This document shows positions 27,188 through 63,806 of a DNA stretch of 64,000 bases, one piece after another. The first letter of the stretch is position 1, and every line of letters starts with the position of its first letter. A program made the translations under genes and the position numbers. The stretch is taken from contig CAVYTU010000013.1 of assembly GCA_963771465.1 (NCBI GenBank), positions 96,001 to 160,000 of the forward strand, given 5' to 3'. The stretch is from an uncultured delta proteobacterium. GTDB lineage: Bacteria; Desulfobacterota; Binatia; UBA9968. Below the pieces are notes generated by a model that was not told the origin of the DNA, did no database searches, and worked only from the letters and a program-made list of their open reading frames with translations.

Positions 27188-27390
27188 AAATATGCTCCAT
27201 CGGAATGAAGGTTCGCCCAGGTTACAGGATGAGCAGCAAGAAGCTCTGCCTTGAAAGAATACTATACCGGTTTGAGCCTGCCTGTCGAGCCGGTGTATCG
27301 TGACGCGCGTCATGGGGCGCGAAACAAAATGTTTGACCGGTCTCGGCGGAGAGGATATTCCTACAGTCAAAGTCAAAGGAAGAATTGTCC

Positions 27391-28677
27391 ATGGAACTGG
27401 AATTGCTCGATTACTCGATTGACGAATTGCGCTGGGCTGATCGGACTTCGCTGATAGGGAAATCGCTGACCGTCGCCGCGGCCGATCTTGAGGGATTACT
27501 GAAAGAGCTGAGCCATGGTATTCGCGTTGACTACGAGCTCGTCCGTCCCGGCGAATCGACACGCATCGTGCATGTCTTGGACACGGTGCTGCCGATCGCG
27601 AAGCTGTCGGACTCCGTTAAGGCATTCCCTGGTTTTGACGGTCCGGCGCAATTGGTTGGCAGCGGAAAAACGGTTCGTATCAAAAATCTTTTGGTGACGG
27701 TTGCCGGGCGTTTTCCCGACTATGACACGTTGACACCGATCGAAAAGCCGCGTGAAGGGATCATCGACATGGCCGGCATCGGCGCGCCCTATTGTTACGG
27801 CTCGGATTATTTTCATTTGGTGCTTACGCTCTCGCCGGATCAAACCGTGTCCAACGCCGCTTTCGATCACGCGCTGCGAATGATGAGTCTGCGCTGTGCT
27901 GGTTTTCTCGCGGCCGTGGCGAAAACCGAGTGTGAGCCAGAAAAGCGTTTGATCAAGCTACCGATGGTTAATGACGCTCTACCCAAAGTCGCGCTGGTTT
28001 ATCAGGTGCAGAGCCAGCTTTGTTGTGCGCGCACGTTTTACTATGGCGAAGAGATTTCGAAGACGCTGCCGACGTTCATCCATCCGGCGGAGTTTTTCGA
28101 CGGCGCGGTGGTGAGCGGTAATTTTAAAAGCGAGCGTAAGATCGCCACATCCGTGCATTGCGATAATCCATTTGTCACCGAGCTCCTCGGGCGGCACGGC
28201 AAGAGTTTAAATTTTCTTGGCGTGATTCTGTCGCGCGGTTACAACGACAGCTTCGAACAGAAAAAGAAGCAGGGATTGTGGGTGGCGCGTTTGGCGCGCA
28301 ACCTCGGCGCCGATGGCGTCGTCGCATTCATGGAAGGAACCGGCAACGGTACCGTCGATTTCATGCAAACGGTCAAGGCGTGCGAAGACGAAGGCATCAA
28401 AACTGCGGCTGTGCTGCACGAATCCAACGGGCCCAGGGGTTACGAACGGCCGCTGGTGGATCATCCTACCGAAGCGGACGGCATGATCAGCCGAGGTAAT
28501 GTGTCGGAAAAAATACTGATCCCGCCATTGACCGTCGTAGTCGGTGGCACGGAGTTGGATTTACATCTGAAGGCGAAGCACAATCCACATCTGCCATTCC
28601 TATTCGACCCAACGATTTTTTTCGGCTCCTATGGCAAGATGGGCGTCAGCGGCTTTCGCGCGGAGTATGAGAACTAG
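27391..28677 (+). CDS. Glycine/sarcosine/betaine reductase component B proprotein (GrdE/GrdG/GrdI-like)
   Basis: VRPGESTRI, REGIIDM.G.GA.Y, LPKVALVY, PTFIHPAE.FDGAVVSG, LGADG; directly upstream of grdB-like gene. Confidence 0.8.
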   Translation: MELELLDYSIDELRWADRTSLIGKSLTVAAADLEGLLKELSHGIRVDYELVRPGESTRIVHVLDTVLPIAKLSDSVKAFPGFDGPAQLVGSGKTVRIKNLLVTVAGRFPDYDTLTPIEKPREGIIDMAGIGAPYCYGSDYFHLVLTLSPDQTVSNAAFDHALRMMSLRCAGFLAAVAKTECEPEKRLIKLPMVNDALPKVALVYQVQSQLCCARTFYYGEEISKTLPTFIHPAEFFDGAVVSGNFKSERKIATSVHCDNPFVTELLGRHGKSLNFLGVILSRGYNDSFEQKKKQGLWVARLARNLGADGVVAFMEGTGNGTVDFMQTVKACEDEGIKTAAVLHESNGPRGYERPLVDHPTEADGMISRGNVSEKILIPPLTVVVGGTELDLHLKAKHNPHLPFLFDPTIFFGSYGKMGVSGFRAEYEN

Positions 28678-28778
28678 CTGAGGCTGGAGATGATTCCAAT
28701 TCGGACGGTTAGCGGCAAGGCTTGTCCTGAGCGAATGCGCAGGAACTGGAGCCACGCAAAGGATTAAGGAGACACACA

Positions 28779-30083
28779 ATGATCAAAGTGCTCCATTATT
28801 TGAATCAGTTTTTCGCCGGCATTGGCGGGGAAGAAGAGGCTGGACAGGAAGTGGTTTTCTTGCCCCGCGCTGTCGGCGTCGGTGTTGAGATCGAGAAGGC
28901 GCTCAAAGAGTATGGAGTCGAGTTCGCCACCGTCGCTTGCGGTGATAACTACTTTCACGAAGCGGAAGAAAAGGCGCTACATGCGATTCGCTCATCCATC
29001 GCACAATTCCACCCCGACCTATTTATCGCCGGCCCGGCGTTCAATGCCGGCAGATACGGTATCGCCTGCGCTAAAGTTTGCAGTTGGGTGCGCGACAACT
29101 GGCAGATCCCGGCGATCACGGCGCTGCACGAAAACAATCCCGGCATCCAAGAAATCGGCCGCCATGTTTTCGTCGTTCAAACCGGTGCTTCGACGGCGTC
29201 GATGGCGGAAACTCTGAAACGCATCACGCTGTTGACGAAGAAGCTCATTGCGGGCGATGCCAGCGGCGCGGCGAATTTCCGCGCTGAGTATTGCTTGCCC
29301 ATTGCACGGCGCTTCACGGTTAGAACGGACAAAGCGGACCACGTGCGCGCCGTCGATCTCTTGCTGGCTAAGCTCAATGGCGAAAGATATGAAAGCGAGA
29401 TTCCGCGGCTCGAGTCCGAGCGGCATTCAATTCCAAACTTGGCGGTTGACCTTAAGGATTCGACCATCGCGCTGGTCACTGAAGGAGGTCTGGTGCCGAA
29501 GGGAAATCCCGATCGGCTGGAGAGCTCGCGCGGCTCAAAATACTTCAAATATTCCATCGACGGGCGCAATGATTTTCGACGCGGTGAATTCGAAGCGATG
29601 CACACCGGCTACGACACGTCTACGGTTGACCAAGATCCCGATCGCATCGTGCCGCTCGACGCCATGCGCGTGCTGGAAAAGGCGCAACGATTCAAAAAAC
29701 TCCACGATCACTATTTCGTGACCACCGGCACCGGCGCCATGCCGAGCAAGATGGCGGAACTCGGCGGCGGTATCGCTGATGAGCTTGTCGGCGCCGGTAT
29801 CGACGCGGTGTTGTTGACTGCGACGTGAGGCACCGGCACGCGTAGCGGCGCTACGATCGCGAAGGAGATCGAGAAGAAGGGAATTCCCGTGGTGTTGATT
29901 ACCTGTCTATCCAACGTTGCCGCGCAAGTCGGCGTCGGCAGGATACTCGGTGGTAACAAATTTCACTACCCGCTGGGCCAGCCGGAGTTGCCGGCGGCGG
30001 AAGAATTACGCTGGCGCGTGGCGCTGATCGAGAAAGCGCTGGTCTCGTTGGAGACAGAGGTCAAAGAGCCGAAGATCGATTGA
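28779..30083 (+). CDS. grdB: Glycine/betaine/sarcosine reductase family selenoprotein B (Sec at TGA 29826-29828)
   Basis: HYLNQFFAGIGGEE, AGPAFNAGRYG, GLVPKGNPD. Readthrough gives LTAT-U-GTGTRSGATIAKEIEKKGIPVV, collinear with GrdB. Confidence 0.88.
29841..29855 (+). promoter_or_regulatory. SECIS-like hairpin for grdB
   Basis: CGTAGC-GGC-GCTACG, 12 nt after the TGA, with G-rich loop. Confidence 0.7.
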
Positions 30084-37809: not shown

Positions 37810-38865
37810 ATGGCGGACGAACATAAACACGAACATAAGGGTGAGCATTCGCACGGCCATGAGCACGAGGCTCACGGCGATAAGCACGGTCATGAACATC
37901 ATGACGACAAACAGGGTCATTCCCATGGGCACGACGCGCACGGCCACGACCACGGTCACGAGTCTGACCACTCCCACGAGCATGATGCGCATGCTCACGA
38001 ACACGGCCACGAACACGCGCATGCGGAGGAACACGGGCATAAACACGATCACGATCATTCCCACGGACACGATCACAAGACGCGCTTTCACGATCCGGCG
38101 CACGCGGCGGAATTCGACCAGCGTGGCATGTCGGACATGCGCAGTCACTTGACGACTAAGTTGATCGAAGCGCTGACGCTCAAAGGCGATGAACTGATTC
38201 TCGACGTGGCGACCGGCACGGGGCGTGTGGCGCGTCCGTTGTCCAAAGCGGTTGCCAGCGGCCGCATCGTCGGCGTCGATGAAGCGATGGCGATGCTCGA
38301 CGTCGGCCATCAGCACAAAGATCCCATCGCGCACTACGCACAAAGCGCCGGCGAAGCGGACAAGCTGCCATTTAAAACCGGCACGTTCGATCGCGCTTTC
38401 GTGTCGTTCAGCTTGCACCACTTCGGCAATCCCGCCGGCGTCGTCGCCGAAGTCTTGCGGGTGCTCAAGAACAGCGGGCGGTTCGTCGTGCTCGATCCGA
38501 TTATCGAAGAGGCCAAAGACAGCGTCGATATCGCCCTTGAGGCAAAAATCAATCAGGTCTTCCGCCGCACCCACGGCGACGCCTTTCGATTTCACACGGC
38601 GAACAGCATTCAACGCTTGCTGACCAAAGCCGGTTACCGCGTGCCGCGCACCAGCGTGCTTTCTTATCCGTTCAATCAAGAAGGCATGGACGGTATTCCG
38701 ACCGGACCTCACTGGCTCGAAGCCGCGTTAGAATTGGAAACGGAAGCGCCGGAGCTTGCCGAACGCATGAAGAAAAACTATTTCACCTGGCACTCCCACG
38801 GCGATCACGCGCACGTGAAGGGAAGTTTTTCTTACGCGCTGATCACCGGCGTGAAGCCGGCGTGA
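37810..38865 (+). CDS. Class I SAM-dependent methyltransferase with ~90-aa His-rich N-terminus
   Basis: HxHxH tract; LDVATGTG motif I, LPF..GTFD, SLHHF, RVLK..GR. Confidence 0.85.
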   Translation: MADEHKHEHKGEHSHGHEHEAHGDKHGHEHHDDKQGHSHGHDAHGHDHGHESDHSHEHDAHAHEHGHEHAHAEEHGHKHDHDHSHGHDHKTRFHDPAHAAEFDQRGMSDMRSHLTTKLIEALTLKGDELILDVATGTGRVARPLSKAVASGRIVGVDEAMAMLDVGHQHKDPIAHYAQSAGEADKLPFKTGTFDRAFVSFSLHHFGNPAGVVAEVLRVLKNSGRFVVLDPIIEEAKDSVDIALEAKINQVFRRTHGDAFRFHTANSIQRLLTKAGYRVPRTSVLSYPFNQEGMDGIPTGPHWLEAALELETEAPELAERMKKNYFTWHSHGDHAHVKGSFSYALITGVKPA

Positions 38866-40693: not shown

Positions 40694-41185
40694 ATGAATC
40701 GGCGAGAACTTGTTGTGAACGGATTGCTTCTGGCGGGAGCGTTTTCCTTGTCTCCGGCTCACTCGTTAGGCGCTGGCGGCCATGTTTACAAACTGGCACC
40801 AGTGTCGATGCTTCCAGAGGGTTTGAGAAATACTCCTTCGGAAATCCGGGACGCTTATCGCTTCGCTGTCCTCAATCGAGAAACGCTCCGCTACATTCCT
40901 TGTTACTGCGGCTGCGTCAACGACGGCCACACAAGTAATGCATCATGCTATGTAAAGGACAAATCGCCGCCAGACAAACCCGAATTCGACCCCATGAGCA
41001 TTGGTTGAAAAATCTGTATAGGCATCACGCGTGACGTGATGAAGATGATGGATGAAGGCAAAAGATTGAAAGACATCCGAACGTACATCGAGAAGACGTA
41101 CAGTCACAACGGACCGTCGACTCCGACTCCACCCGTTCCTGGGGACTCGATCAAGATTAACGAGGTTTGGTTAAAACGAAAGTGA
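40694..41185 (+). CDS. PCYCGC-motif protein with Tat-like signal and putative Sec (UxxC, TGA 41006-41008)
   Basis: MNRRELV signal; YIPCYCGC...GH.SN..CY. Readthrough FDPMSIG-U-KIC-IGITRDVMKMMDEGKRLKDIRTYIEKTYS..GPSTPTP restores the family C-terminus. Confidence 0.8.
41023..41041 (+). promoter_or_regulatory. SECIS-like hairpin
   Basis: CATCACG-CGTGA-CGTGATG, 14 nt after the TGA; GT in the loop. Confidence 0.7.
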
Positions 41186-41192: not shown

Positions 41193-41462
41193 ATGAAAAA
41201 GATTCTTTTTGGACTTATCGTGGGCATGCTGGTCGCCTCGGCAGTGGGCGCGTATCAGGCCGAAGAGCATAAGAGCGGTTCTCCAATGGGTGGAATGATG
41301 CAGGGGATGAAGGGAATGATGGGAGAGCAAAAGCCGGGTGAGCAGTCGCAGGACATGATGCAAGGTATGAAGGAAATGATGACCAGGATGACGAAGATGA
41401 TGGATATTTGCAGCCAGATGATGGGCAACAGCTCAGATCGGCAGCCCTCAGAAAAGAAATAA
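41193..41462 (+). CDS. Small secreted Met-rich protein (possible Cu/metal binder)
   Basis: Signal peptide; repeated MMQGMK and MMDICSQMM. Confidence 0.7.
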   Translation: MKKILFGLIVGMLVASAVGAYQAEEHKSGSPMGGMMQGMKGMMGEQKPGEQSQDMMQGMKEMMTRMTKMMDICSQMMGNSSDRQPSEKK

Positions 41463-41471: not shown

Positions 41472-42110
41472 ATGGACGACTGTTGTCAGGAGAAAGAAGC
41501 CGAACTTGCCGCGATGCAAGCGACACACGGTCGCGTATTGAGGATTGTTCTCGCGATCAATGCGGTCTTTTTTCTGATTGAGTTCACCGCGGGTATTTTC
41601 GCCAACTCGACCGCTCTTCTGGCGGACTCATTGGATATGCTCGGAGATGCTTTTGTTTACGGCCTTAGCCTATTTGTGTTGTCACGGAGTGTTAAATGGA
41701 AAGCTGGTGCATCGATCGCGAAAGGCGTCATTATGGTCGCCTTTGGCATCGGCGTACTTCTGGAAGCCTTTTATAAAGGTATGACTGGCCAAGTGCCAGT
41801 TTCTGAAACGATCGGACTGATTGGTGCGCTGGCTCTCTTGGCCAACTTAGTGTGTTTTGCACTTCTGTATGGATACCGAGCTGATAATCTCAACATGCGC
41901 TCTACGTGGCTCTGTTCGCGAAACGACATAATAGCAAACGCTGGCGTTTTAGTAGCGGCCTTCGGGGTGTACGCAACTCAAGCCGTATGGCCGGACGTTC
42001 TGATCGGTGGCGCTATAGCCCTACTGTTTCTGAAATCGGCCTTAACCGTGCTTACCGAATCTTTTAGCGAATTTAAGCGTGCGAAGCCGGTTCCTTCCTG
42101 CTCGATCTAA
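41472..42110 (+). CDS. Cation diffusion facilitator (CDF) family transporter, TM domain only
   Basis: MDDCC N-terminus; STALLADSLDMLGD, WLCSRND, WPD. Confidence 0.88.
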   Translation: MDDCCQEKEAELAAMQATHGRVLRIVLAINAVFFLIEFTAGIFANSTALLADSLDMLGDAFVYGLSLFVLSRSVKWKAGASIAKGVIMVAFGIGVLLEAFYKGMTGQVPVSETIGLIGALALLANLVCFALLYGYRADNLNMRSTWLCSRNDIIANAGVLVAAFGVYATQAVWPDVLIGGAIALLFLKSALTVLTESFSEFKRAKPVPSCSI

Positions 42111-50964: not shown

Positions 50965-51041
50965 GGTCGCATAGCTCAGTTGGTTAGAGCGCGCGCCTCA
51001 CATGCGCGAGGTCGTAGGTTCAAGTCCTACTGCGACCACCA
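50965..51041 (+). tRNA. tRNA-Val(CAC)
   Basis: GGTCGCA/TGCGACC acceptor stem, D arm, CGCGC-CTCACAT-GCGCG anticodon arm, GTTCAAGTC T loop, encoded CCA. Confidence 0.95.
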
Positions 51042-51317
51042 TATTTGCTAGTGTAAAGAACCGCCCACTTTTGTCCTTCTTCGAGACGGTCGCGGGCGCC
51101 CACGGCAACCGATACGTCAGGGTGATTTTTTGCCGCGAACCCGTACTTCCCTAATAATTTACTTCAAAAATTCTCTTTTCGACCCGATTGCTCGTTCTTT
51201 CCGTCGCTTCTGCATTTCTCTTATGTGTGAGCGTGCATCAGAGCGGTAGGAATCTGTCGGATTTCGGCCTTAAAAGTAGTCACTTTATTGAAAAGTACCA
51301 AATAAAATTATGAAACC

Positions 51318-51491
51318 CTACTCTTCCGCGGCGGCCGAAAGAATCTCTTCTTGCGTCGCTTTCAGCCAGTATTCTGTAGGGTCGTTTTTCAATTTGACTG
51401 GCGTCAGTGAGCCTTCAACGTCGTGCGTTACACGCTCAAAAGTTTGAAAATTTACTTCAATCATCCTGCCGTCGGCATTTTCAAATTTCAT
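51318..51491 (-). CDS. Small hypothetical protein (57 aa)
   Basis: Open frame MKFENADGRMIEVNFQTFERVTHDVEGSLTPVKLKNDPTEYWLKATQEEILSAAAEE; weak RBS. Confidence 0.35.
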   Translation of the reverse strand: MKFENADGRMIEVNFQTFERVTHDVEGSLTPVKLKNDPTEYWLKATQEEILSAAAEE

Positions 51492-51951
51492 AATCTAGAA
51501 ATAACATGCTGCATGCCTTGATAAAAGATACCCCACGATTCGGGTTCGCTAAAAACTGGATCGACGGTAATATGATTATAAAGGAGGAAATGAAGAAAAA
51601 CTTATTTTAATAACGCGGAGGCACCTTCCCGTCATCCACACGTTTTCACTCCTTGCACATCCTCATTCCTATGGCCAACCGACACTGTCGTTATTTCAGC
51701 GGCTCGCTAACCCAGAGTTGATTGGTTTAGAGGTGTGTTCTTGTAAGAGAAAGTCTTACTGCTGCCCTGCCGTGGCTGCCTTCTGTTTGCGGCAGTTCGT
51801 CGAGAATACTGGCAACGATTGAGGTGGGCGCGCAGCTCTTTACCGCTGTCTGCACGAAATGCCGCGGCAGGATTTCATAGGCCACACAGCTATTAAACAT
51901 GCGGAAGGAGTCGCGAACTGGAACCGCAAGGCATAAGGATTTTGCTCCGTC

Positions 51952-52275
51952 TCATATGCAGGGTCCAACGACAAGATCAGTCGTTCGACCTTGGGCACCG
52001 CAGCGCATGATGACGTCACTAGGTTTGGGCAACGGTACGGCGAGCGGCGGATAAAGATTGTATGGATTTACTTGGCGACCTTGTCCCGAAACACAGTGGC
52101 CTGTAACGTAATCTACACCAAGACCCTTCGCTCCACATGCCACATTTGACTGGCTTGTTTTATCCCGAGCCGGATTAGCTCCACTAGAATTTGGGAGATT
52201 CTGACTAAGGCTCACACTCGGCAAAAACAATAGAGAAATCATTAGCGATGGTATCAAGAAACTTACCTGCCGCAT
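51952..52275 (-). CDS. Small secreted protein with two Cys-paired repeats
   Basis: GGAGG RBS, signal peptide; CGAKGLGVDYVTGHCV and CGAQGRTTDLVVGPCI. Confidence 0.6.
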   Translation of the reverse strand: MRQVSFLIPSLMISLLFLPSVSLSQNLPNSSGANPARDKTSQSNVACGAKGLGVDYVTGHCVSGQGRQVNPYNLYPPLAVPLPKPSDVIMRCGAQGRTTDLVVGPCI

Positions 52276-52855
52276 GTCGGTTACCTCCTGATCTAGCACT
52301 TAATAACGGTCAACGGGCAATTGTACGAGTTTTCTCCGCCATTAGGCAAATCACCGCAACAGCGCTATTGAAGAATAGTCAGCTATAGTCCTCACAGGCG
52401 TCCCCTAGAATCGCGCAGGAATGGGCTTGACGACTTATCCGCACACATAGACAATGCGCCATGCGCCAAGGCAAGCCGACTCGTCGCTCCTGGAAGTGGA
52501 CCTTGCCTGCCTTTGTCGGCCCACCGGAATCTACAAATTGACTGTTGATATACATCGATGGTAGCCGGCTTTTTAACGTCAGAAAAGCGCCCAATGAACT
52601 CGGCGCCCTGGCGGGCGATCGGAGCGCAGCTCGCGATTCAGATTCAGCACCGTCTCAGGTTGATTAACTTCTTAAGCTACTTCACAAACCTGTCCAATAT
52701 TTTTTCTGCCGTGACAAGGACGGTCAAAAGAACGAGCTTTTTTCGGCCACTTTTGCCAATCGGGTGACGCACTATCCAGTGTACTGCCAGCTAAGTCCGG
52801 GAAATTTCACCCATTCCTTGCGCTTCTTCCTAGCAGAGCAGTGACGCTCATGACC

Positions 52856-52871
52856 CGGCACACCCATTGCT
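52856..52871 (+). promoter_or_regulatory. Sigma54 promoter
   Basis: CGGCAC-ACCCA-TTGCT, about 40 nt before the receiver gene. Confidence 0.7.
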
Positions 52872-52909
52872 CTAAACAGGCGTGACTTCTCGCTCTCTCT
52901 GGAGAATGG

Positions 52910-53353
52910 ATGCTTAGAAACATAGAATCAGAGACTAAGCCTATCTCTCTTACCGTGATCGTTGCCGATAAACATCCCATTGCTCGGGCCGCACTCGCTA
53001 GTTTCTTGACGTATGACGGATATCGAGTGTTCCAAGCAGACAGTCTTGCCGCGGCTGTTTCCTATATCAATTACAATGAGAATCTCTCCGTACTCATTGC
53101 GGACCTCGAAATGCCGGACTGGAGATCGATTGTGCGACATGCGGTAAGGACAACCCATGCTCTGGTGATGGGCATGGAGGGGAATCATTCAATTCCCGAA
53201 ATGTATGACCTTCACGAGCACGGTCTTCGGCTCTGTTTGCAGAAACCGATCAACTACAATGACGTGCGCGGAGCGATTGAAAAGAATGTGTTACGTCCTC
53301 GTGTGCCAAAACTTGAATATGCGCATTGGTTCGGCTCCGCTGTAATGCATTGA
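52910..53353 (+). CDS. Stand-alone atypical response regulator receiver
   Basis: VIVADKH...GYRV...IADLEMPD...LQKP. Confidence 0.7.
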   Translation: MLRNIESETKPISLTVIVADKHPIARAALASFLTYDGYRVFQADSLAAAVSYINYNENLSVLIADLEMPDWRSIVRHAVRTTHALVMGMEGNHSIPEMYDLHEHGLRLCLQKPINYNDVRGAIEKNVLRPRVPKLEYAHWFGSAVMH

Positions 53354-53625
53354 AGGAATTCCGTCCGTTCTCATCGATTGCAACCACTTCCCCATCGATT
53401 AGCGTGTTTGGCGGCAGCTTTGCGCAAGCACTGGCGCCATCGCGGAACCGCGTTCGTGAATCCATTGTCCCGACGTGACCAGAGCGTAACGCCGCTGTAC
53501 TCGGCCGCAAGGCATCGGTAGCCATCAAGACTGGCCTCATAGCTGCCAGGGTCGCCGGATGGCAGCTCGGTAACGGCATGTGCGTACATCGGTTCGATGA
53601 ACGCCAGTTTAACTCGCGGTATTGT
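53300..53625 (-). pseudogene. ATP-dependent DNA ligase (LigD-type) fragment
   Basis: FIEPMYA..V.ELP.G...YEASLDGYR...LWSR; after a frameshift, IDGEVVAIDENGR.SFNALQ. Catalytic K of KxDG is missing and the gene is truncated. Confidence 0.75.
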
Positions 53626-53773
53626 TGAAACTTCTATCCGAGCATTTAATTACAGCGGGAGATTGTGTTGATGGAATTTGAGATTTGATTCCCGCCGACT
53701 TGGATATCATGCCTGAGGCATAAATTTTCGCTAGGGCAATTCATCTTTTCAGGCGGCATGGCATTATAGAGGT

Positions 53774-54400
53774 ATGGGGAGAGTAACTAGAGACCTGGGC
53801 CTCTTTTCAATCTCGACAAAAGTTCCAGATGGATTCATTTATCGCCCAAGCTTTATCTCGGAGGCCGAAGAGCACGAACTTATTGGCGAGATTCAGAAAA
53901 TTAATCTTGCGCCGTTTAAATATTATCAATTTACAGGGAAGCGACGAACAGCTAGCTTTGGTTGGGAGTACGAGTTTGGCACGAGTGACATCACACCAAC
54001 TCGGGATCTGCCGGCATTTCTTCTACCATTCCGGAGACGCGCAGGACAGCTTTTCAACATTGATCCGAACGTCCTGGTTCAAGCATCCATTATTGAGTAT
54101 TCCATCGGCGCGCCGATCGGATGGCACCGGGACATTCCGCAGTTTGGCAATGCAATAGGCATTTCTCTTGGCGCGCCGTGCCGAATGAGGTTTCGCAAAT
54201 GTAGCCGCAACCGGTCGAAGGTTGGTCGTGATGAAATATTGTCAATCGAACTAGAACCGCGCTCAATTTATTTCATGAGCGGCGCGGCGCGAGAGATCTG
54301 GCAGCATTCAATACCGCCGGTGAAGGAGCTACGCTACTCGGTCGTGATGAGGACTCTGCGCGTGAAACCAAAACTTATAAAAGATAGAGATGGCGAATGA
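53774..54400 (+). CDS. AlkB family 2OG-Fe(II) dioxygenase
   Basis: IGWHRD, ISLG, WQHSIPP, RYSVVMR. Confidence 0.88.
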   Translation: MGRVTRDLGLFSISTKVPDGFIYRPSFISEAEEHELIGEIQKINLAPFKYYQFTGKRRTASFGWEYEFGTSDITPTRDLPAFLLPFRRRAGQLFNIDPNVLVQASIIEYSIGAPIGWHRDIPQFGNAIGISLGAPCRMRFRKCSRNRSKVGRDEILSIELEPRSIYFMSGAAREIWQHSIPPVKELRYSVVMRTLRVKPKLIKDRDGE

Positions 54401-54919
54401 TGCCCGGGTCGGGTGTGGTGCTAGCAGCCGGAGTTCTCATACTCACCCATCGCCGATAATTATTCAGTTGAAAATCGCAGCCCTGGTGCTAGCTAACGGT
54501 TCGACAATTCCATCACTAGTCGATAACTTCGGGTGGCGGGGGCGTTCGGAATGAACCTTCATCTCTCGAGGTATTAGGTCGCAAGGATTTTCAGACCGCA
54601 GAGCAGCAACCCAGGAGCGTGCTGACGCGGTGGTCTTGTTGCAAAACGGTGTCGCTGCTGCTCACCGGACAGAGATTGCAGAATTTGCAATAAGGAAAAG
54701 GTTTTTTCGTCAGCCTTCTTGGCTTCCTACCTTCGCTGTCATGGGAGTTCACGTCCGCAAGGAATTATTTGGATATTTTACATTGCACAACATTTGTTCG
54801 GCGAAGCGGTAGAGATAAAGGGTCTACTCCTGCATTTGACATGAACGTTGGTAATAGAAGAAACTATGCCGAATAATATCTGATTTGCAGAAACTAGGTT
54901 TGAGAAAAAGGGGCTGTTT

Positions 54920-55318
54920 GTGAGTAAAAAAGACGATCCGACGCTGTGGGACGTGGTGGCATTTGGTAGTATGTCCGTGGCAATGTTCACGGGTTTTTCC
55001 TTATGCCTCGGTCTTGGCTTTCTGGCTATTATCTTTTTCGGATTGTGGGACGCAATGGGCCAAACATTTGAAAAGTCGATCATCTCCTTTAGCCTTTTTG
55101 ACATCTCTACACTTTTTGGTAGTTGTTCGGTGATCCTTTTTGGAGCGGGTGTGGGCAGAATAATGGGTGCTGATTGGATGCATAGTGCGGAGCGGTGGTT
55201 CAAGACCACGGAAGAATGGGCACAAGAACAGGTAGGTATTGAGACGCGCGGGTTTCGTTGCGTATGGCTTGCTAGTATGAAAAATGTCCGACGGATATTT
55301 TCAAGCCGACATCACTGA
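54920..55318 (+). CDS. Hypothetical membrane protein
   Basis: Two hydrophobic segments; no recognisable motif. Confidence 0.35.
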   Translation: MSKKDDPTLWDVVAFGSMSVAMFTGFSLCLGLGFLAIIFFGLWDAMGQTFEKSIISFSLFDISTLFGSCSVILFGAGVGRIMGADWMHSAERWFKTTEEWAQEQVGIETRGFRCVWLASMKNVRRIFSSRHH

Positions 55319-55804
55319 ATGAGGTTAAGTCGCACAACATCTGGATTTGCGACACGAACATGGGTCAAGCATCACGGCTTGGCCCTTTTTTTACGGTTAG
55401 GGATATTCACCATTGACAAAAGGTCAATATTTGCTTTGCTGTTGCGTTAGAGAGAGCGCGCGGTAGGAAACAAAGCGGGAAGAGTGAGACGCAAACCCTT
55501 GGAAGAATTGATTGCCAGTTGGAACCGAAGCCGAAATAATTCGTCGCAGCCATCGATGACGCGATCGCTTGCGACAATAAATTCTCCGACTGTTCAGAGT
55601 GGCTCGTCTGAGCGCGACGCTATGCCGACGCGATCAACTTCTTGCAAGTAGAATGTGTGCCGCTGCCGACCAGTAGCCTGCTGCTCCAAAAGGCTTTCGA
55701 AGTGACCTTTTAAAACCGCAACAACTTATAGGTTATGCCAGCTCCGACTGCGAGCGAGTGCTCGCGGGTCAATCGGCCGCGGCGACTACGCCATCGTTTC
55801 CGGT

Positions 55805-56254
55805 TTACACTGATAGTAATCGGTCAAAAAAAGATCGGTAACTGCGCAGCGCTAGGCGCAGCTCCTCCGTCGAAACCTTTTCGGAGTGCTCCCATTCAGA
55901 TTCTAAGCGGCTCCTTTGATCGCTAAAGCTTTTTGCTAACTGTTGCATAAGCTCAGCTACCAGTTCATCAGCCTGTTCGACGGCCCGGCGCGGCTCGTCG
56001 ACGAAACCGGTTTGGATGTTTTGCCAGCGGGAGCGGAACTCTTTTCCCTCATTTGGAGAGAGCAGCGGACTTAGCGCTTCGCCGTTTGTTCGCTCCAAAT
56101 GCGCTGGAACTCCGTTAGCCGGCTCGTCCTTTGCGACCAATTTACGGTCCTGATCGGAATGCTCAAAGTCTGCCTTGTCGCTCTCCGCCCGCGCCATATC
56201 CTTCGTCGTCAATTTCTTGCTTTCCGACACTTCCATCGTACGTGCCTCCTTCAA
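55805..56254 (-). CDS. Conserved hypothetical protein
   Basis: RWQNIQTGFVDEPRRAVEQAD...STEELRLALRSYRSFFDRLL; same domain as the upstream gene. Confidence 0.75.
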   Translation of the reverse strand: MKEARTMEVSESKKLTTKDMARAESDKADFEHSDQDRKLVAKDEPANGVPAHLERTNGEALSPLLSPNEGKEFRSRWQNIQTGFVDEPRRAVEQADELVAELMQQLAKSFSDQRSRLESEWEHSEKVSTEELRLALRSYRSFFDRLLSV

Positions 56255-56862
56255 TGGTTTGGCTGAACACCCGAGGATTTACCGTTGCGCAGTCGCACGG
56301 TCTTGCTTTTATCGCTGCTTACGTCAGGTTCTTCGGATTTGAGAAGATCGTCGAACAATATCCGATAGTGGACAAGCGCCTGCCGTAGCTCTTCAGTGCT
56401 CGCGTTGGACTTTTCGCTGCGGTCTGCGATGCGAGTGGCGGCTCGAAAATTTTCGACGACATGGGGATGGTCGACCGATATATCCGCAGCCGACTGCTCG
56501 AAATCGGTTAACGGGTAGCCGCACCGCTGCATTACCTCTTGAACCAGCCGGTGTGCGTCGGAGACTGCACTATCGGGTTGATCCACAAAGCGGTTTTGAA
56601 CCACTATCCAGTTTTCCCGATATCGCGCCCGTTCGGCACGTGGCAAAGAGACGATATTGAATTTGCGGACTCTTTTTTCGCGCTTGCTCAGCTCCGCTTC
56701 TGCGCTCTGTTGGCTTTGGTACGCGCTAACTGTCTTATCGTATTCCGGTCCGAAACGTTCACGTAACCGCTCGGTTGTTTTTCGACGCGCAAAAAACCAA
56801 ATTCCGAAGCCGATCAAAATTAACGCAATCGCGCTAAGAGCAATAATAAGTTCATTAGTCAT
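56251..56862 (-). CDS. Conserved membrane-anchored hypothetical protein
   Basis: N-terminal TM; RFGPEY, W..VQ.RFVDQP, STEELRQALVHYR. Confidence 0.8.
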   Translation of the reverse strand: MTNELIIALSAIALILIGFGIWFFARRKTTERLRERFGPEYDKTVSAYQSQQSAEAELSKREKRVRKFNIVSLPRAERARYRENWIVVQNRFVDQPDSAVSDAHRLVQEVMQRCGYPLTDFEQSAADISVDHPHVVENFRAATRIADRSEKSNASTEELRQALVHYRILFDDLLKSEEPDVSSDKSKTVRLRNGKSSGVQPNH

Positions 56863-56896
56863 AGATCACCTGTGCTTGGTATTTCTTGCAATAAAC

Positions 56897-56912
56897 CGCA
56901 AACAGTGTGCCA
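56897..56912 (-). promoter_or_regulatory. Sigma54 promoter
   Basis: TGGCAC-ACTGT-TTGCG, 35 nt before ATG 56862. Confidence 0.8.
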
Positions 56913-57486
56913 TTTAATTTTGGCACTAACACGGGGCTTGCAGAAAAGCGGCGTCACATTTCTGCAAACATTTGCTGCCGTTCATCGCAAATTTGGGACA
57001 CGAAAATGCGGGCGCGATGTGGTGTTTCGAGCAGCGCCCGGGTCGCAATGAGATGATTTGCTGCGTAGTCATCTAAGATAAATTTCCTTCCTTACCCTCT
57101 GAACATCACATGCAGCGAGACAATGATCGTCGCCGTATGCCGAGATTGATCGAGCGGCTATGAATATTGCGTGACCGCGTTTGGAGGGAAAACCAATTTG
57201 CCGCCCGAGGCAGAAAATCGCGCCGGGGCAAAGGAGCTTGAAGTGACCTGCACGAGCCGAGAATGCAAGCCGTCGGAGCAGTAGCAATTGACGTATGCTG
57301 CTGAAACTTTTTGGCCCACCTAAAAGTTGGACTCAAAATTGCCTATTGATACGGTAGAGTTGCAAGTTTTCCGAGTGTGACACGCGCACGGCAAGCTGAG
57401 GAGATTGTTTAAGCTGGCTTTTTGTGAGCGCGGCCGCAACGAGGGCTTGAATTCGTAATCATCTTTATGATTATGTACTTCGGGAA

Positions 57487-57536
57487 CGTCCCAAATTCGG
57501 GACGGTCAGTAATGCATTTGTCCCGTAAATGAGACA
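57487..57536. promoter_or_regulatory. Tandem palindromic enhancer (UAS) sites
   Basis: CGTCCC-AAATTC-GGGACG (57487) and TGTCCC-GTAAAT-GAGACA (57519), 32 bp apart. Confidence 0.7.
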
Positions 57537-57576
57537 GACTCCTTCGTGAAATCTTTATAAACCGCAGTCTCATTTT

Positions 57577-57592
57577 TGGTACGGGGATTGCC
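57577..57592 (+). promoter_or_regulatory. Sigma54 promoter of the NtrC-family gene
   Basis: TGGTAC-GGGGA-TTGCC. Confidence 0.7.
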
Positions 57593-57625
57593 CTAAAATG
57601 CTCTTATAAAAAAGAGGAGAGTGTC

Positions 57626-58981
57626 ATGCAAGGTAGTATTCTTGTTGCCGAAGATGAATTGTTGCCCAGAAAAAATATCTGCCGGGTTCTCGAAGAGGAG
57701 GGTCTATATCAGATTCATGAAGCCGCTGATGGGAACGCGGCAATAGAAGCAGTCGACAAAAACGATTTAGATTTGGTTCTGCTGGACTTAAAGATGCCGG
57801 GTGCGGACGGTATGACGGTGCTCCAGCATGTGCGACAGGCTTCGCCCCAGACGTTAGTCCTGATCATGACTGCTTATGCATCGCTCGAAACCTCGGTTGA
57901 GGCGCTCCGCCTGGGAGCGCAGGATTATATTTTTAAACCAATCGTGCTCGACGGCGTGGTGAAGAAAGTGCGCACGTTGATGGAGAACAAGCGGCTTGCT
58001 TGGGAGATCCAGACGCTACGCCGGCAAATTAATCTGGAATTCGAGGGCACCGAATTGATCGGAAACAGCCCCGCCAACGCGGAAATTCTCGAGGTGATCG
58101 AGAAAGTTGCTCCGACCAACTCGACCGTTTTAATTAGTGGCGAGAGCGGTGTCGGAAAAGAGGTCGTCGCGCGTACTATTCACAACCAAAGCGCGCGCCG
58201 CGACAAAGTCTTTCTCGCGGTCAACTGCAGCGCGATTCCGGAAACCCTGCTGGAAAGCCAACTCTTCGGTCACGTTAAAGGCGCCTTTACGGGTGCGTCG
58301 AATTATCAAGAGGGTTTGTTTCAGCGCGCCAACGGCGGGACTATTTTTTTGGACGAGATTGGCGAGATGCCGCTCATGTTGCAGCCGAAAATTTTGCGCG
58401 CCATTGAAGAAAGAGCGGTAACGCCCATTGGCGCAGCCAAGCCGCTTCAAGTGGATGTGCGGATCATTGCCGCGACCAACCGGGAGCTAAAGGAGGAAGT
58501 GGATGAGGGAAAGTTTCGCGGCGACTTGTATTACCGCTTGAATGTCATTCATCTGCAGATCCCACCGCTGCGTGAGCGGCGGGAAGACATCCCGCTCTTG
58601 GTTGAACACTTCATCCGCCGCCAGAATAGCGAGCTCAAGAAAAACTACCAGGGCGTGGAAAGCAGTGCGTTGAAGGTACTCATGTCGCTGCCCTGGAAAG
58701 GCAATATTCGCGATCTCAACAACGTGCTCGAGCGCGCCATGATCCTCGGCAATGGCGAGTGGATTACGGTTAAAGATCTACCGCGCTGGGAAGTGCCCGA
58801 GGTCGATGTCTCCCGCAGCGTCGGTCACGATCTCAGGCGGACGGTTCGCGCCTATGAAAAAAGTCATATCGAAAATGTTCTGAAGGAAACTCACGGCGAC
58901 CGTACCCAGACCGCAGAATTGCTCGGCCTGAGCCGCTCATCTTTGTATCGTAAGATCGAAGCGTTAGGGATTCAATCTTAA
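57626..58981 (+). CDS. Sigma54-dependent enhancer-binding response regulator (NtrC/AtoC family)
   Basis: Receiver (AEDE, DLKMP, KP), GESGVGKE, GAFTGA, LDEIGE, WKGNIR, Fis-type HTH. Confidence 0.95.
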   Translation: MQGSILVAEDELLPRKNICRVLEEEGLYQIHEAADGNAAIEAVDKNDLDLVLLDLKMPGADGMTVLQHVRQASPQTLVLIMTAYASLETSVEALRLGAQDYIFKPIVLDGVVKKVRTLMENKRLAWEIQTLRRQINLEFEGTELIGNSPANAEILEVIEKVAPTNSTVLISGESGVGKEVVARTIHNQSARRDKVFLAVNCSAIPETLLESQLFGHVKGAFTGASNYQEGLFQRANGGTIFLDEIGEMPLMLQPKILRAIEERAVTPIGAAKPLQVDVRIIAATNRELKEEVDEGKFRGDLYYRLNVIHLQIPPLRERREDIPLLVEHFIRRQNSELKKNYQGVESSALKVLMSLPWKGNIRDLNNVLERAMILGNGEWITVKDLPRWEVPEVDVSRSVGHDLRRTVRAYEKSHIENVLKETHGDRTQTAELLGLSRSSLYRKIEALGIQS

Positions 58982-59020
58982 AATCTTGTCGGCGGATTTG
59001 AAGTTATTCATTTCCGCGCC

Positions 59021-59461
59021 TCAATGCACCGCCATACTTGGTTCTTCCGGCGGCGGTAGCGCTTTCCTTTTGGGACGGCGCCCCAGATGGGAAAGCGCGG
59101 CGACTAGGCCGTGCATCGCCGCGCTCGCTTCGCGCACCACGGCCGCAGCGCCGGTGGTTGTCTTCGTGCCGATCCGCTCGATTCCGTCGAGAAGACCGTT
59201 GACTTTTTGTTGCACGCGGGAGGAGATTTGGTTTCCAACCTGGCCGTAATGGCTCGCTTGCTTGTTGATTTCATCCATCAGTCGGACGACCTGCTCCGTA
59301 ACGGCCTTAGTTTGATCGGATAAGCGAGCGACGGTCTTTTCGACTTCGGCGGCTAATTTGGCGACTCGGCGAAAGATGACAAATAATATAATTGCTTGAG
59401 CCGCTGAGGCGACAGCCATGACGCCGATAAATACCGTCAGATAGGTCACGTAAGATTCCAC
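59021..59461 (-). CDS. Membrane-anchored coiled-coil protein (DUF948/YtxG-like)
   Basis: TM helix plus heptad region; downstream of the YtxH-like gene. Confidence 0.6.
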   Translation of the reverse strand: MESYVTYLTVFIGVMAVASAAQAIILFVIFRRVAKLAAEVEKTVARLSDQTKAVTEQVVRLMDEINKQASHYGQVGNQISSRVQQKVNGLLDGIERIGTKTTTGAAAVVREASAAMHGLVAALSHLGRRPKRKALPPPEEPSMAVH

Positions 59462-59489
59462 GGTGGCTCCTTATCTGTGAATGCGGTTT

Positions 59490-59831
59490 CTAATCACGCT
59501 GACGATCACTAAATTCGCTGCGAATCTCTTCCTTCGTCTCTCTATACGCCTGCTTGCCAGCATCGACAGCGTCATTTACGCTGGATCGGCCGCCTTCAAC
59601 ATATTGCTTGCCTTTCTCAATCGCGCTATGCGCAATCTCGCTCAGCTGGCGGCTGCGCCGCTCTAGCGCTTCGCGGCCCTTGTCCGTTGTTTCTCGAATA
59701 GCATGACGTATATCCTGACCGGTTCGCGGCGCGAATAAGAGACTAATTGCGGCGCCGATACCGATACCCAACAATATATAACCTATTTTACCGTCACCAG
59801 TGCCCTTAGCTTCCATGCCGTGGTTCTCCAT
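59490..59831 (-). CDS. YtxH domain protein
   Basis: GIGIGAAISLLFAPRTG..IR. Confidence 0.85.
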   Translation of the reverse strand: MENHGMEAKGTGDGKIGYILLGIGIGAAISLLFAPRTGQDIRHAIRETTDKGREALERRSRQLSEIAHSAIEKGKQYVEGGRSSVNDAVDAGKQAYRETKEEIRSEFSDRQRD

Positions 59832-59927
59832 TGGTTTTCCCCTTCACTGTTTAGATTTTCTTATCACCAAGCACGAATGATCGCAGACTATTTAATTTTG
59901 ATCGACGACCCTTTAGCGCCAAGTTTC

Positions 59928-60134
59928 TTAATGCGTGTCGATATTATTCGTCCAATCGGCGACGCGGCGCTCCGCCTCATCTTTGCTCAGGCCGTATCTC
60001 TCCTGGATCTTGCCAACCAACTGATCGCGTTTGCCAGCGATCTTATCCAGCTCGTCGTCGGTGAGATCGCCCCAATTTTCTTTGATCTTACCTTTCATTT
60101 GTTTCCACTGTCCTGAAATTGTGTCCCAGTTCAT
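59928..60134 (-). CDS. CsbD family general stress protein (YjbJ-like)
   Basis: [29 protein letters not shown]...GKIQERYG. Confidence 0.92.
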
Positions 60135-60177
60135 AACGTACCTCCACAAAGAGAATTTGCCAACGACCGATTAAACG

Positions 60178-60193
60178 AGCAAAAGATGTGCCC
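60178..60193 (-). promoter_or_regulatory. Sigma54 promoter upstream of csbD-ytxH
   Basis: GGGCAC-ATCTT-TTGCT. Confidence 0.75.
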
Positions 60194-60361
60194 GCAGCGA
60201 ATTTAGGAGAGCTCTATCAGAGAGGTCAGGTAAATCGCAAGTCTAAGACAACAGAACTTGTAATGTTTCGGTGATGGGACAAATTGCCATTCGTCTCACG
60301 CGCCGCCAGAGTACAAACGTCAATGTAGCGCGGCCATTCGGTCCGCCAACAACGACCGTGG

Positions 60362-60619
60362 TCAAGCCTCCGTTCCCGTGGAGACACTCTCAATTATAGC
60401 CGGTCGGGGCGGTACAGCTTCTTGGCCGATGATTTCTATTTCTGACGGATAAGCGTAATCGGTCACACCGGAATCCCATCGCACCAGAATGGGATGACGA
60501 CCGACGTTGTCCATCTCACACTGGATCACACCTTCCGTGGAACAGCGAATTAAGCCTTGACTGGTTCTGATCTCTCGTGTGGCTCGGCAGCGCATTCGCG
60601 TCAAAGTTGGGTTAGTCAT
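60362..60619 (-). CDS. Small hypothetical protein (possibly SH3-like)
   Basis: 85 aa with G.I...I.VRWD.G...Y.YP.EIE pattern. Confidence 0.5.
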   Translation of the reverse strand: MTNPTLTRMRCRATREIRTSQGLIRCSTEGVIQCEMDNVGRHPILVRWDSGVTDYAYPSEIEIIGQEAVPPRPAIIESVSTGTEA

Positions 60620-60796
60620 TGTATGCTGACGATTCGCGATTTTCTGGTGACCATCCCTAGTCCTGTCAAATTCGATTGGTGGTCACAGGGAGCAGGCGAT
60701 GCCGTTCGTCTGCGGTTTTATGTCCCGCAAGCGAACGGCATACATGATTCTTGCGCGAATCTAGATCCTTTATTTTGTTTTTATCTGCAGCTGCAG

Positions 60797-61564
60797 CTAT
60801 CGGCTGCTACGCGCACTTCGGCCATTCTTTTGATTCGCGTCGACTGCTCGCTCGGTCGCTTCCGCTTGCCACATGTTGGTGGTCACGTCGATTTTGTTAG
60901 CCTTATGGCTTGTCTTGTCTAAACTGAGTTGTACTTCGTAGCTTTGATCGCCTTTGACGATCTCCCATTCGGCGTAATCGGGCTTGTCGCTATTAACCGA
61001 AGTGATTTTCCAGCCCATTTTTTCCAGCTCTCGACGGTAAACGTCCTTTTCTTGTCCCGTTTTTAACGTTTGCTCGAGCTGCTCTTTTCCTTTAGTCCAG
61101 TCAGCGCGCCGGTCTCGGTCGCTATAACGAACATCGCCCCGGCCCATGGCTGGTACTTTGTTTCCTTTCAATGCTTTTTTCGTCGGGTCCGCTTTCCACA
61201 TGTTCGTAGTCACGTCGATTTTGCTCGCTTTGTTACTCTTGTCCAGATCGATCTGCACTTCGTAGCTCTGGTCGCCCTTAACGATTTCCCACTCGACGTA
61301 ATCGGCCTTGTCGCTATTGACCGCTGTGATTAGCCAGCCCATCTTATCGAGCTCGCGGCGATATTGCTCCTTGGTCTCGCCGAGCTTTAAAGCTTGTTGC
61401 AATACATCTTTTTGCTTGTTCCACTCGACGCTGCGGTCGCGGTCGCTGTAACGTCCGGCCGGTGTGCTCGTTACACTGTCGCTTCGTTGCGACCAAGCCA
61501 ACTGCGGCGACAACGCAAGAATCCCGATCAGTATTGCAGGCCCTCTAAAAATTAATTTTCTCAT
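60797..61564 (-). CDS. Secreted protein with two tandem PepSY-like repeats
   Basis: Signal peptide; two ~105-aa near-identical units (RYSDRDR...MGW.IT.VNSDK.DY.EWEIVKGDQSYEVQ..LDK...KIDVTTNMW). Confidence 0.75.
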   Translation of the reverse strand: MRKLIFRGPAILIGILALSPQLAWSQRSDSVTSTPAGRYSDRDRSVEWNKQKDVLQQALKLGETKEQYRRELDKMGWLITAVNSDKADYVEWEIVKGDQSYEVQIDLDKSNKASKIDVTTNMWKADPTKKALKGNKVPAMGRGDVRYSDRDRRADWTKGKEQLEQTLKTGQEKDVYRRELEKMGWKITSVNSDKPDYAEWEIVKGDQSYEVQLSLDKTSHKANKIDVTTNMWQAEATERAVDANQKNGRSARSSR

Positions 61565-61604
61565 TTCTACGCTCCTTTTCGGTTTTTGCACAATTTATGA
61601 TCTG

Positions 61605-61620
61605 AGCAACTGTCGTGCCA
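61605..61620 (-). promoter_or_regulatory. Sigma54 promoter
   Basis: TGGCAC-GACAG-TTGCT. Confidence 0.82.
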
Positions 61621-61796
61621 CACCTAGGGGATAGAGAGAGCTGGCCCTCGTGGTTTAACCAATGCATGCGCGGATTGTCGTCTTGTTTCTGCGATGAGTT
61701 CGCGTTTTTGGGACAATCCTTTTAACGGCGCGATGGATTCGCTGTAGGGTCGGCGTGCCGGGTTGAATCTCATAACTTTAAATTCTTAACTCTGTG

Positions 61797-61812
61797 TGGC
61801 ATGTTGTTTGCG
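61797..61812 (+). promoter_or_regulatory. Sigma54 promoter
   Basis: TGGCAT-GTTGT-TTGCG. Confidence 0.78.
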
Positions 61813-61865
61813 CATGTTCTGTTCATCACTTTTTGAATTGGCGGGCGTAATAGGAGGGATTTTTT

Positions 61866-62414
61866 ATGGCGGACAGCGCTTTTCTGACGGATGTGAAAAC
61901 GCTACGGGAGCGGGCGCGGCAGCATATTGAGCATGGCGCCGTGACCGAGGGATACCAAGCTAACCGCGACGTCGTGTTGAAACTCCTGAATGAAGCTGTG
62001 GCTACGGAGATCGTTTGCGTATTGCGATACCGCCGCCACTATTTCATGGTGTCGGGGATCAATGGTCAGGGGGTCGGCGCTGAGTTCCTGCAGCATGCGA
62101 ATGAGGAGCAGGGTCATGCCGATCAAATCGCCGCCCGCATCGTGCAACTGGGTGGTGCGCCGAATTTCTCTCCTGACGGTATGCTCAGTCGCAGCCATTC
62201 CGAATATGTCGAGGGCGAATCGTTGATCGATATGATCCGCGAAAATCTGGTTGCCGAACGCATCGCCATCGATAGCTATCGGGAGATGATTCAATACTTG
62301 GGCAATGAAGATCCGACCAGTCGCAGGATGCTTGAAAACATATTAGCCGTCGAAGAAGAACACGCCGAAGATATGGCCACCCTGCTTGACCGTCACGAAC
62401 ATCCTCCGAGGTAG
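61866..62414 (+). CDS. Ferritin-like / bacterioferritin family protein
   Basis: LNEAVATE, EEQGHAD, ENLVAERIAI..Y, EEEHAED di-iron ligands. Confidence 0.9.
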   Translation: MADSAFLTDVKTLRERARQHIEHGAVTEGYQANRDVVLKLLNEAVATEIVCVLRYRRHYFMVSGINGQGVGAEFLQHANEEQGHADQIAARIVQLGGAPNFSPDGMLSRSHSEYVEGESLIDMIRENLVAERIAIDSYREMIQYLGNEDPTSRRMLENILAVEEEHAEDMATLLDRHEHPPR

Positions 62415-62585
62415 AGGGCTCGGTGTCGTTGCAACAAAGAATGGAAGAGTCTCTCGCAACGCAAAAGGAGTAGACGACGAACTAGATCGGCGAACTCATC
62501 ATGCAGGCACGCGCATCCAATTGTCTCGTGCATTGTTGATTCAGCTGGGTTTGACCCGGCCTCTGTGGTCTTCCATAGCGAAGGG

Positions 62586-62619
62586 GAGACAGATGAACAG
62601 TCGCCTGCTCATCTGTCTC
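62586..62619. terminator. Hairpin between convergent genes
   Basis: GAGACAGATGA / TCATCTGTCTC 11-bp stem; no U-tract. Confidence 0.45.
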
Positions 62620-62686
62620 GGGAGAAACGCCGGCGGGGGAAGAAAGACCGGCGCCGCGCGGAGCCAAGATTGAAAATGATGGACGA

Positions 62687-62839
62687 CTATACTCGTCCCA
62701 TTAAGGCGAGAACGATAATGATTAAAAGGATTAAACCAAGCCCGCCGCTCGGATAATAACCCCAGCCGCTACTGTAGGGCCACGTCGGCAGCGCACCCAC
62801 TAATAAAAGAATTACTATGATGAGTAGTATAGTTCCCAT
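62687..62839 (-). CDS. DUF3309 family small membrane protein (50 aa, missed by ORF track)
   Basis: MGTILLIIVILLLVGALPTWPYSSGWGYYPSGGLGLILLIIIVLALMGRV; AAAGGA RBS. Confidence 0.88.
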   Translation of the reverse strand: MGTILLIIVILLLVGALPTWPYSSGWGYYPSGGLGLILLIIIVLALMGRV

Positions 62840-62926
62840 AATGTGTCCTTTCTCGGTTGTCTAGTTCGCTCTTCTCTCTTTACGTTTTTCGAAAGCTCAC
62901 CATATCCTCCTCTGCGAGTTCCGAGG

Positions 62927-62942
62927 AGCAACAGCCATGCCA
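62927..62942 (-). promoter_or_regulatory. Sigma54 promoter
   Basis: TGGCAT-GGCTG-TTGCT. Confidence 0.8.
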
Positions 62943-63159
62943 GTCGGATAGCATTCTTATTCTCTGGAAAGATAGGGAGAGCACCAAAACCGAGACGAGC
63001 AGTTCCAGGAATGTCCCAATATCAGGAGGAGCGCGAGGATGGTGGTGTCAAGTTCGAGACACTGTTTAGTTGAGTCGATTAATCCACGGGTCCGCGACTT
63101 ATCCAGCGCGGCAGCATACTGGCCGGAACTCAACCCGACAACCTGAAGGAAAGTTATAC

Positions 63160-63208
63160 GTGTGAGGAGTCGAGATCGCGATTGCGCGAATCTCTCGACT
63201 CCTCACAC
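63160..63208. terminator. Strong hairpin downstream of the BON gene
   Basis: 16-bp stem GTGTGAGGAGTCGAGA / TCTCGACTCCTCACAC. Confidence 0.55.
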
Positions 63209-63232
63209 CAACTGCTAACGGGGCGTGGGATG

Positions 63233-63541: not shown

Positions 63542-63584
63542 ATGCTGATTCCTCCCTCGTAGATTACTATCGAGCAGCCATAAC

Positions 63585-63600
63585 CGCAAAAGCCGCGCCA
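63585..63600 (-). promoter_or_regulatory. Sigma54 promoter
   Basis: TGGCGC-GGCTT-TTGCG. Confidence 0.78.
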
Positions 63601-63790: not shown

Positions 63791-63806
63791 TGGTTTGGTA
63801 TTTGCT
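63791..63806 (+). promoter_or_regulatory. Sigma54 promoter (weaker match)
   Basis: TGGTTT-GGTAT-TTGCT keeps GG-N10-GC. Confidence 0.55.

Follow-up and report, generated by a model that had tools for sequence, protein, structure and literature searches.

A PF13798 gene of an uncultured Binatia bacterium with a predicted selenocysteine codon and a possible kinship to CcmH

Introduction

The Pfam family PF13798, also called OS_HP4 or CYCXC, is already listed as a UxxC selenoprotein family (U, selenocysteine or Sec) in the relevant passages of a 2026 review (PMC13188914) and of PMC9312934. NCBIfam holds it as NF041379 (OS_HP4_CYCXC, 'CYCXC family (seleno)protein'), and a representative in the deep-Sep supplement (PMC12013277) carries U at the same column as the gene described here. 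The passages of PMC13188914 and PMC9312934 on OS_HP4 are silent on function, export route and fold, the review PMC13188914 makes no mention of Ccm or Tat, and the main text of PMC1976440, which both reviews cite, names OS_HP1-3 only, HP4 being absent from it. Literature searches, with subscription papers outside their coverage, found no functional study of PCYCGC, PF13798, CYCXC or OS_HP4 proteins. Here we analyse a PF13798 gene in a 64,000-nucleotide stretch from an uncultured delta proteobacterium of the Binatia (assembly GCA_963771465.1, contig CAVYTU010000013.1; hereafter the window). An initial annotation of this DNA had presented the gene as a hidden exported selenoprotein. The novelty implied there does not extend to the family or the Sec site, which were known before; what is new, within the literature searched, is an unannotated clade with twin-arginine N-termini, cultured hosts, and leads to CcmH and to ccm operons.

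Exported selenoproteins are known from the Tat-exported (twin-arginine translocation) FdnG and FdoG of Escherichia coli and from the periplasmic [NiFeSe] hydrogenases. These share with the present protein the combination of Sec and membrane export, but they are large cofactor enzymes of another fold. The PCYCGC motif-containing (lipo)proteins of Bacillota and Chloroflexota (for example AOT13_14730, PMC13068155), referred to below as cysteine (Cys) forms, are closer: they have the same domain and conserved cysteines and are surface-exposed. They differ in having CxxC instead of UxxC, mostly lack the arginine pair and are often lipoproteins.

Results

The gene occupies positions 40694..41185 of the forward strand. 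From the ATG at 40694 the frame runs for 104 codons to a TGA (41006-41008) and then for 58 more sense codons to the final stop, TGA 41183-41185, so that readthrough would give a protein of 163 residues with Sec105 as the first residue of a UxxC motif (41006-41017). An alternative GTG start upstream, at 40604, was rejected because the homologues begin at the Met of MNRR. The open frame beyond the TGA, on which the initial annotation rested, is borne out by the family profile: the PF13798 score is 47.8 bits up to the TGA (profile positions 26-95) and rises to 87.7 bits with readthrough (26-149 of 153), above the gathering cutoff of 25 bits. The part past the TGA adds the xxC (K-I-C), a helix with the pattern GK.LKDIR.YIE.TY, and GPSTPTP. 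The tail is thus present in the readthrough product as had been claimed, but it is family sequence only in part, for 44 of the 58 codons belong to the family and the last 14 (41141..41182, forward strand) form a C-terminal extension private to this copy, the six closest loci stopping right after PTPPVP. Ahead of the TGA lies the PCYCGC motif (40898..40915, forward strand; C70, C72 and C74), followed by the conserved H79 and C85, all in near-invariant alignment columns. An AlphaFold2 (AF2) model of residues 26-150 reached pLDDT 96 and pTM 0.90.

The TGA is not peculiar to this assembly. A genome scan yielded 13 loci, six in metagenome-assembled genomes of Binatia/Deltaproteobacteria (L001-L006) and seven in Bacillaceae (L007-L013); the patterns were derived from the query, which biases the sample to its kin. 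TGA stands at the Sec column in all 13 GTDB loci, or 14/14 with the window gene, while the true stops of the same 14 genes vary (TAA in 10, TGA in 3, TAG in 1). A plasmid search (23 matches, four fetched, of which L017 had no motif match and was left unscored) added Thermomicrobium roseum, with TGA at the Sec column and an identical hairpin core, bringing the total to 15/15 genomic copies from three phyla. This gene (L016:5878-6333 on plasmid NC_011961.1) comes from a cultured organism and has a Tat-lipoprotein-like N-terminus, and its RefSeq product, WP_012642643.1, ends at the predicted Sec codon. The PCYCGC gene of Bacillus sp. N5-665 is a Cys form. So is the one fetched from NZ_CP093325.1 (L014), a 5.5-Mb record with two PCYCGC matches that is filed as a plasmid and is evidently a chromosome.

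Protein homologues agree with this picture. Near homologues were taken as the 120 listed of 154 protein matches; protein data do not give their stop codons, but 115 of the 120 end at residue 104, just before the TGA column (one of them, P0089, being an alignment artefact). As distant homologues we took the 150 best of 1080 representatives. Cys occupies the Sec column in 136 of the 140 that are full length. The proposal of a Sec variant carrying UxxC in place of the homologues' CxxC is sustained. In the window gene and its six closest loci, pN/pS stands at 0.22 past the TGA, close to the 0.20 of the part ahead of it; judging from these seven sequences, purifying selection goes on past the TGA. 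There is no in-frame start codon between the TGA and the conserved C108.

A SECIS-like hairpin (selenocysteine insertion sequence; 41023..41041, forward strand) begins 14 nt past the TGA, where the initial annotation had placed it. It has 7 bp, a 5-nt loop (CGUGA) lying 21 nt past the UGA, and a folding energy of −9.0 kcal/mol, with folding z-scores of about −2.1 to −2.4 for segments of 33-65 nt and −1.0 for 95 nt. The bacterial consensus as set out in section 5 of PMC13188914 comprises a loop of 3-9 nt, a stem of 4-16 bp, G in the first two loop positions, a spacing of 16-37 nt and a minimum free energy of at most −7.5. The hairpin agrees with every term, and so do those of 11/11 TGA copies tested; the two Cys-codon controls lack the hairpin and fail the test. 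Because 49 of 150 random TGA triplets in the window pass the same test, the hairpin alone is weak evidence. It goes beyond chance in being conserved in register across relatives. Between Binatia and Bacillaceae, both partners have changed in three of the seven stem pairs, and pairing holds in 96.9% of cells, a covariation that amounts to one contrast between two clades and not to many events. Silent divergence, 0.68-0.74 in the other parts, drops to 0.30 over the hairpin (seven sequences), and codons 6-10 after the TGA are invariant at silent sites in 7/7 sequences.

The rival explanation is that the TGA is a true stop, in a pseudogene, a split gene or an assembly error, or that it is read as Cys or Trp. 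TGA is indeed the commonest stop in the window, closing 26 of 62 mechanically called open reading frames (ORFs), and the five near homologues that run on have C, R, R, L or W at the Sec column, so that four of the five lack the expected Cys. Nor was Sec machinery seen: selA, selB, selC and selD were absent from the window and the fetched loci, and Rfam and ARAGORN found no tRNA-Sec in the window, only a tRNA-Val. A search of E. coli SelA against PLSDB plasmids matched 151 records and is uninformative, the T. roseum plasmid and Bacillus sp. N5-665 being absent among the matches listed (60 per search). Apart from that search, these points weigh against Sec. A true stop, however, would not explain a column that is always TGA, never TAA or TAG, in 15/15 copies across three phyla, nor the persisting coding selection, the lack of a start codon ahead of C108, the conserved hairpin, or the U at the same column in the published OS_HP4 representative. 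Genome-wide reassignment of TGA is ruled out by ordinary TGA stops elsewhere in the window. We regard the rival as very improbable. From the codon, its conservation, the coding selection beyond it and the RNA covariation we infer Sec insertion itself, and we are highly confident that TGA 41006-41008 is translated as selenocysteine to give a full-length PF13798 protein with UxxC. UGA105 would be decoded by the ordinary bacterial SelB/tRNA-Sec/SECIS route.

A second gene in the window serves as a proxy for Sec use in this genome. A GrdE-like and GrdB-like pair lies at 27388-30083 (forward strand), the partner also matching FarE weakly. The GrdB-like gene has an in-frame TGA (29826-29828) at the known Sec position, 84 more codons and its own SECIS-like hairpin, and readthrough raises its TIGR01918 score from 308 to 396 bits. 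Of the usual UxxCxxC motif it has neither Cys, and neither GrdA nor GrdC was seen in the window.

In a quick tree of 92 rows, of poor resolution, the TGA forms are spread over three places (the Binatia clade, Bacillaceae and T. roseum) and a Cys form, P0007, nests among the Binatia TGA forms; a single origin of the TGA forms is still compatible with this tree. Compared with the OS_HP4 representative in the deep-Sep supplement, the query has the same Pfam domain and motif order (H-A-S-T-U-V-T-C there and M-S-I-G-U-K-I-C here, aligned by eye). It differs in its twin-arginine N-terminus, in Met for His at column 101 and in its Binatia-type lineage, and it scores 52.5 bits against the NF041379 equivalog cutoff of 90, with five relatives tested at 53.7-71.3 bits. 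By these scores the query is related to the curated NF041379 subfamily but falls outside it, and it is probably because of scores below the cutoff that the clade is left truncated in databases.

The Tat consensus is S/T-R-R-x-F-L-K followed by a hydrophobic region. Residues ~1-25 of the query (40694..40768, forward strand) resemble a twin-arginine signal peptide, with a putative cleavage site and no lipobox Cys in this copy. The N-terminus is MNRRELV, as first described, and its N-R-R-E-L-V is a weak motif without Phe. By regular expression, an RR-x-F-type motif occurs in 111 of the 120 listed near homologues and a lipobox-like Cys pattern in 51 of them, against an RR motif in only 16 of 140 full-length distant Cys forms. 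The Bacillaceae Sec forms have no RR and resemble ordinary lipoproteins, so Sec use does not require Tat. We consider it likely that the protein is exported, most probably by Tat; the earlier proposal of Tat export thus gains from the near homologues and is weaker on the query's own motif.

The gene context in relatives points beyond metal transport. In all seven Bacillaceae loci (Neobacillus, Priestia and Bacillus, which are closely related), the Sec gene stands immediately ahead of a gene for a diheme cytochrome c and of ccmE/F/H/C/G, a ccm operon of System I whose CcmH is of the CxCGC type. The position of a TGA-form PCYCGC gene at the head of a ccm operon would imply that these bacilli use Sec. 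In the six Binatia-type loci, TlpA is found in three, SCO in two and a diheme cytochrome c in two; L004 and L006 have none of these, nor CusF, CusB/CusA-like or MerR genes. There are no ccm genes in the window. A search for longer forms gave three matches among 8000 scored candidates, two of which look like frameshift junk. The informative one, P0392, has a PCYCGC domain and a zinc ribbon fused to a homologue of an unannotated ccm-operon gene (E 2e-12). That gene (L007:11328-12377) encodes a membrane-anchored protein of 350 residues with no Pfam or NCBIfam match. In L001, an ArsM-like methyltransferase gene follows the PCYCGC gene directly (L001:6097-6855); its best NCBIfam matches are ArsM selenoprotein fusion models, below cutoff. 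What unites the contexts is chemistry at the cysteines of exported heme and copper proteins.

The same theme emerged from profile comparison. HHalign against CxCGC-type CcmH gave a probability of 82.4% (E 1e-5, 57 columns), with the CxCGC motif and His in line and the Sec column on an invariant Cys. A local rerun gave 84%, compared with 0.6% for a reversed decoy and at most 42% for 60 block-shuffled decoys. CcmH also ranked first in Foldseek and VIA. The N-terminal redox domain of CcmH/CycL (PF03918; 2HL7, 2KW0) shares with PCYCGC proteins a similar signature of the C-terminal helix pair and appears to share a helix, Cys-loop, two-helix topology and an extracytoplasmic location, and in Bacillaceae a separate CcmH is encoded together with the PCYCGC gene in the ccm operon. 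There are clear differences. PCYCGC in the query takes the place of the LRCxxC redox motif of CcmH, which is missing; UxxC and a 15-residue insertion are extra; the protein has an N-terminal anchor or signal and no C-terminal transmembrane segment; and pairwise identity is 23%.

It is worth weighing whether the resemblance is convergent, a CxxC-capped helical hairpin in a protein that acts outside both contexts, for example as a general envelope antioxidant. The CcmH fold scores are weak and not significant, and an AF2 model of a Bacillus CcmH was of low confidence (pLDDT 61.5), though it ranked CcmH structures first. PF03918 did not match the query protein, and the ESM Atlas without PF13798 gave no usable match. 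By hmmsearch, saposin and ferredoxin outscored CcmH; these matches were rejected as short CxxC-helix stretches. The plasmid Cys forms, L004, L006 and L016 lie in unrelated neighbourhoods. The weak fold scores, the saposin and ferredoxin scores and the unrelated neighbourhoods speak for convergence. On the other side, HHalign scores the CcmH match above each of the 61 decoys, with Cys motifs kept in register, and cytochrome c, TlpA and ccm neighbours recur in two phyla, with one fusion. Convergence thus appears improbable, if less so than a true stop at the TGA.

Downstream of the query gene lie a secreted Met-rich protein gene (41193..41462, forward strand; 89 residues, 18 of them Met, no family match) and a gene for a short cation transporter of the CDF family (41472..42110, forward strand; 212 residues, transmembrane domain only; PF01545 79.6 bits, TIGR01297 83.8 bits). 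By analogy with other Met-rich binders, the former is a candidate Cu(I)/Ag(I) binder. The gaps are 7 and 9 nt, and it is on these short gaps only that co-transcription rests, because a scan for promoters and terminators did no better than chance. A CDF orthologue, 58-61% identical, adjoins the PCYCGC gene in four of the six Binatia/Deltaproteobacteria loci (L001, L002, L003 and L005). A Met-rich homologue is found upstream of it in L005 only (1/6), so the Met-rich partner is not a recurrent neighbour, and in one protein, P0210, an N-terminus similar to the Met-rich protein is joined to the PCYCGC domain. The periplasmic metal-handling module of the initial annotation is supported by the CDF linkage but is incomplete as an account of the ccm operon, TlpA, SCO, the cytochromes c and the CcmH-like profile. 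Context and profile together are at least as suggestive of a part in maturing periplasmic metalloproteins by thiol-redox chemistry.

Elsewhere in the window, a methyltransferase with a His-rich N-terminus of ~90 residues, possibly a metal-binding protein, is encoded 1.8 kb upstream of the PCYCGC gene (37810-38865, forward strand). Two tandem GAPDH-family genes lie at 9215-11250 (forward strand); the first is divergent, and the 77 open codons after its TGA overlap the second gene, probably by chance. From 50965 to 64000, right after the tRNA-Val, G+C falls from ~57% to ~50% and many short unannotated ORFs occur, a possible island.

Discussion

Our best guess, which we hold at about even confidence, is that the PF13798 protein is a CcmH-like redox helper that works after export, through thiol/selenol chemistry, on metal and heme proteins. 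The gene contexts and profile similarity are observed, and it is from these that we infer chemistry and partners. The mature domain would be a distant relative of the redox domain of CcmH and would fold as a small bundle of helices, in which the CxCxC...H...C loop would sit at the place of CcmH's CxxC and UxxC would cap the N-terminus of the following helix. With its low pKa, the selenol would make the nucleophilic attack, to be resolved by C108 or by a loop Cys. Outside the cytoplasm, the protein could serve as a thiol-disulfide reductant that holds Cys pairs in metalloproteins (apocytochrome CxxCH, SCO/Cu sites) in the reduced state, and a TlpA/CcmG-type thioredoxin would recycle it. Its gene in this window would belong to a small cassette for metal efflux, together with those for the Met-rich protein and the CDF transporter.

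A less probable reading, though one of some substance, is that the Sec protein is a periplasmic binder or chaperone of soft metals (Cu(I), Ag, Hg, Cd, Zn), acting in concert with the Met-rich protein and the CDF exporter by way of a site formed by C70, C72, C74, H79, C85, M101, U105 and C108. Such a role would suit the six Cys/Sec residues plus His, and column 101, where His (131 of 150 distant representatives) and Met (119 of 120 near homologues) are both metal ligands. Besides the adjoining CDF genes, CusF, CusB/CusA-like, outer membrane efflux protein (OEP) or MerR genes occur near the PCYCGC gene in L001, L003 and L005 (3/6), and one Cys form stands beside ArsR/SmtB and a heavy-metal P-type ATPase. 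Tat export, moreover, often goes with cofactor loading. Yet the Bacillaceae Sec form lies in a ccm and not a metal-efflux context, the RR motif is rare among Cys forms, and neither Foldseek nor VIA matched a metal-binding fold. The redox-helper and metal-binding models overlap and are not mutually exclusive.

For gene annotation, recognition of the Sec codon corrects a systematic error, by which more than 100 protein clusters and a RefSeq gene of cultured T. roseum lose the C-terminal third of the protein. An orphan selenoprotein family also gains its first testable functional hypothesis in the literature searched, a CcmH-like role as redox helper to heme and copper proteins, together with cultured, harmless hosts in which to test it. 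More speculatively, and with rather more doubt than belief, PF13798/OS_HP4 may represent a second, so far unrecognised branch of the CcmH fold. Its Sec forms, from genes routinely annotated as truncated, would then be selenol-based reductases for the maturation of extracytoplasmic apocytochrome c and copper sites in aerobic or facultative soil bacteria such as Binatia, Neobacillus and Thermomicrobium.
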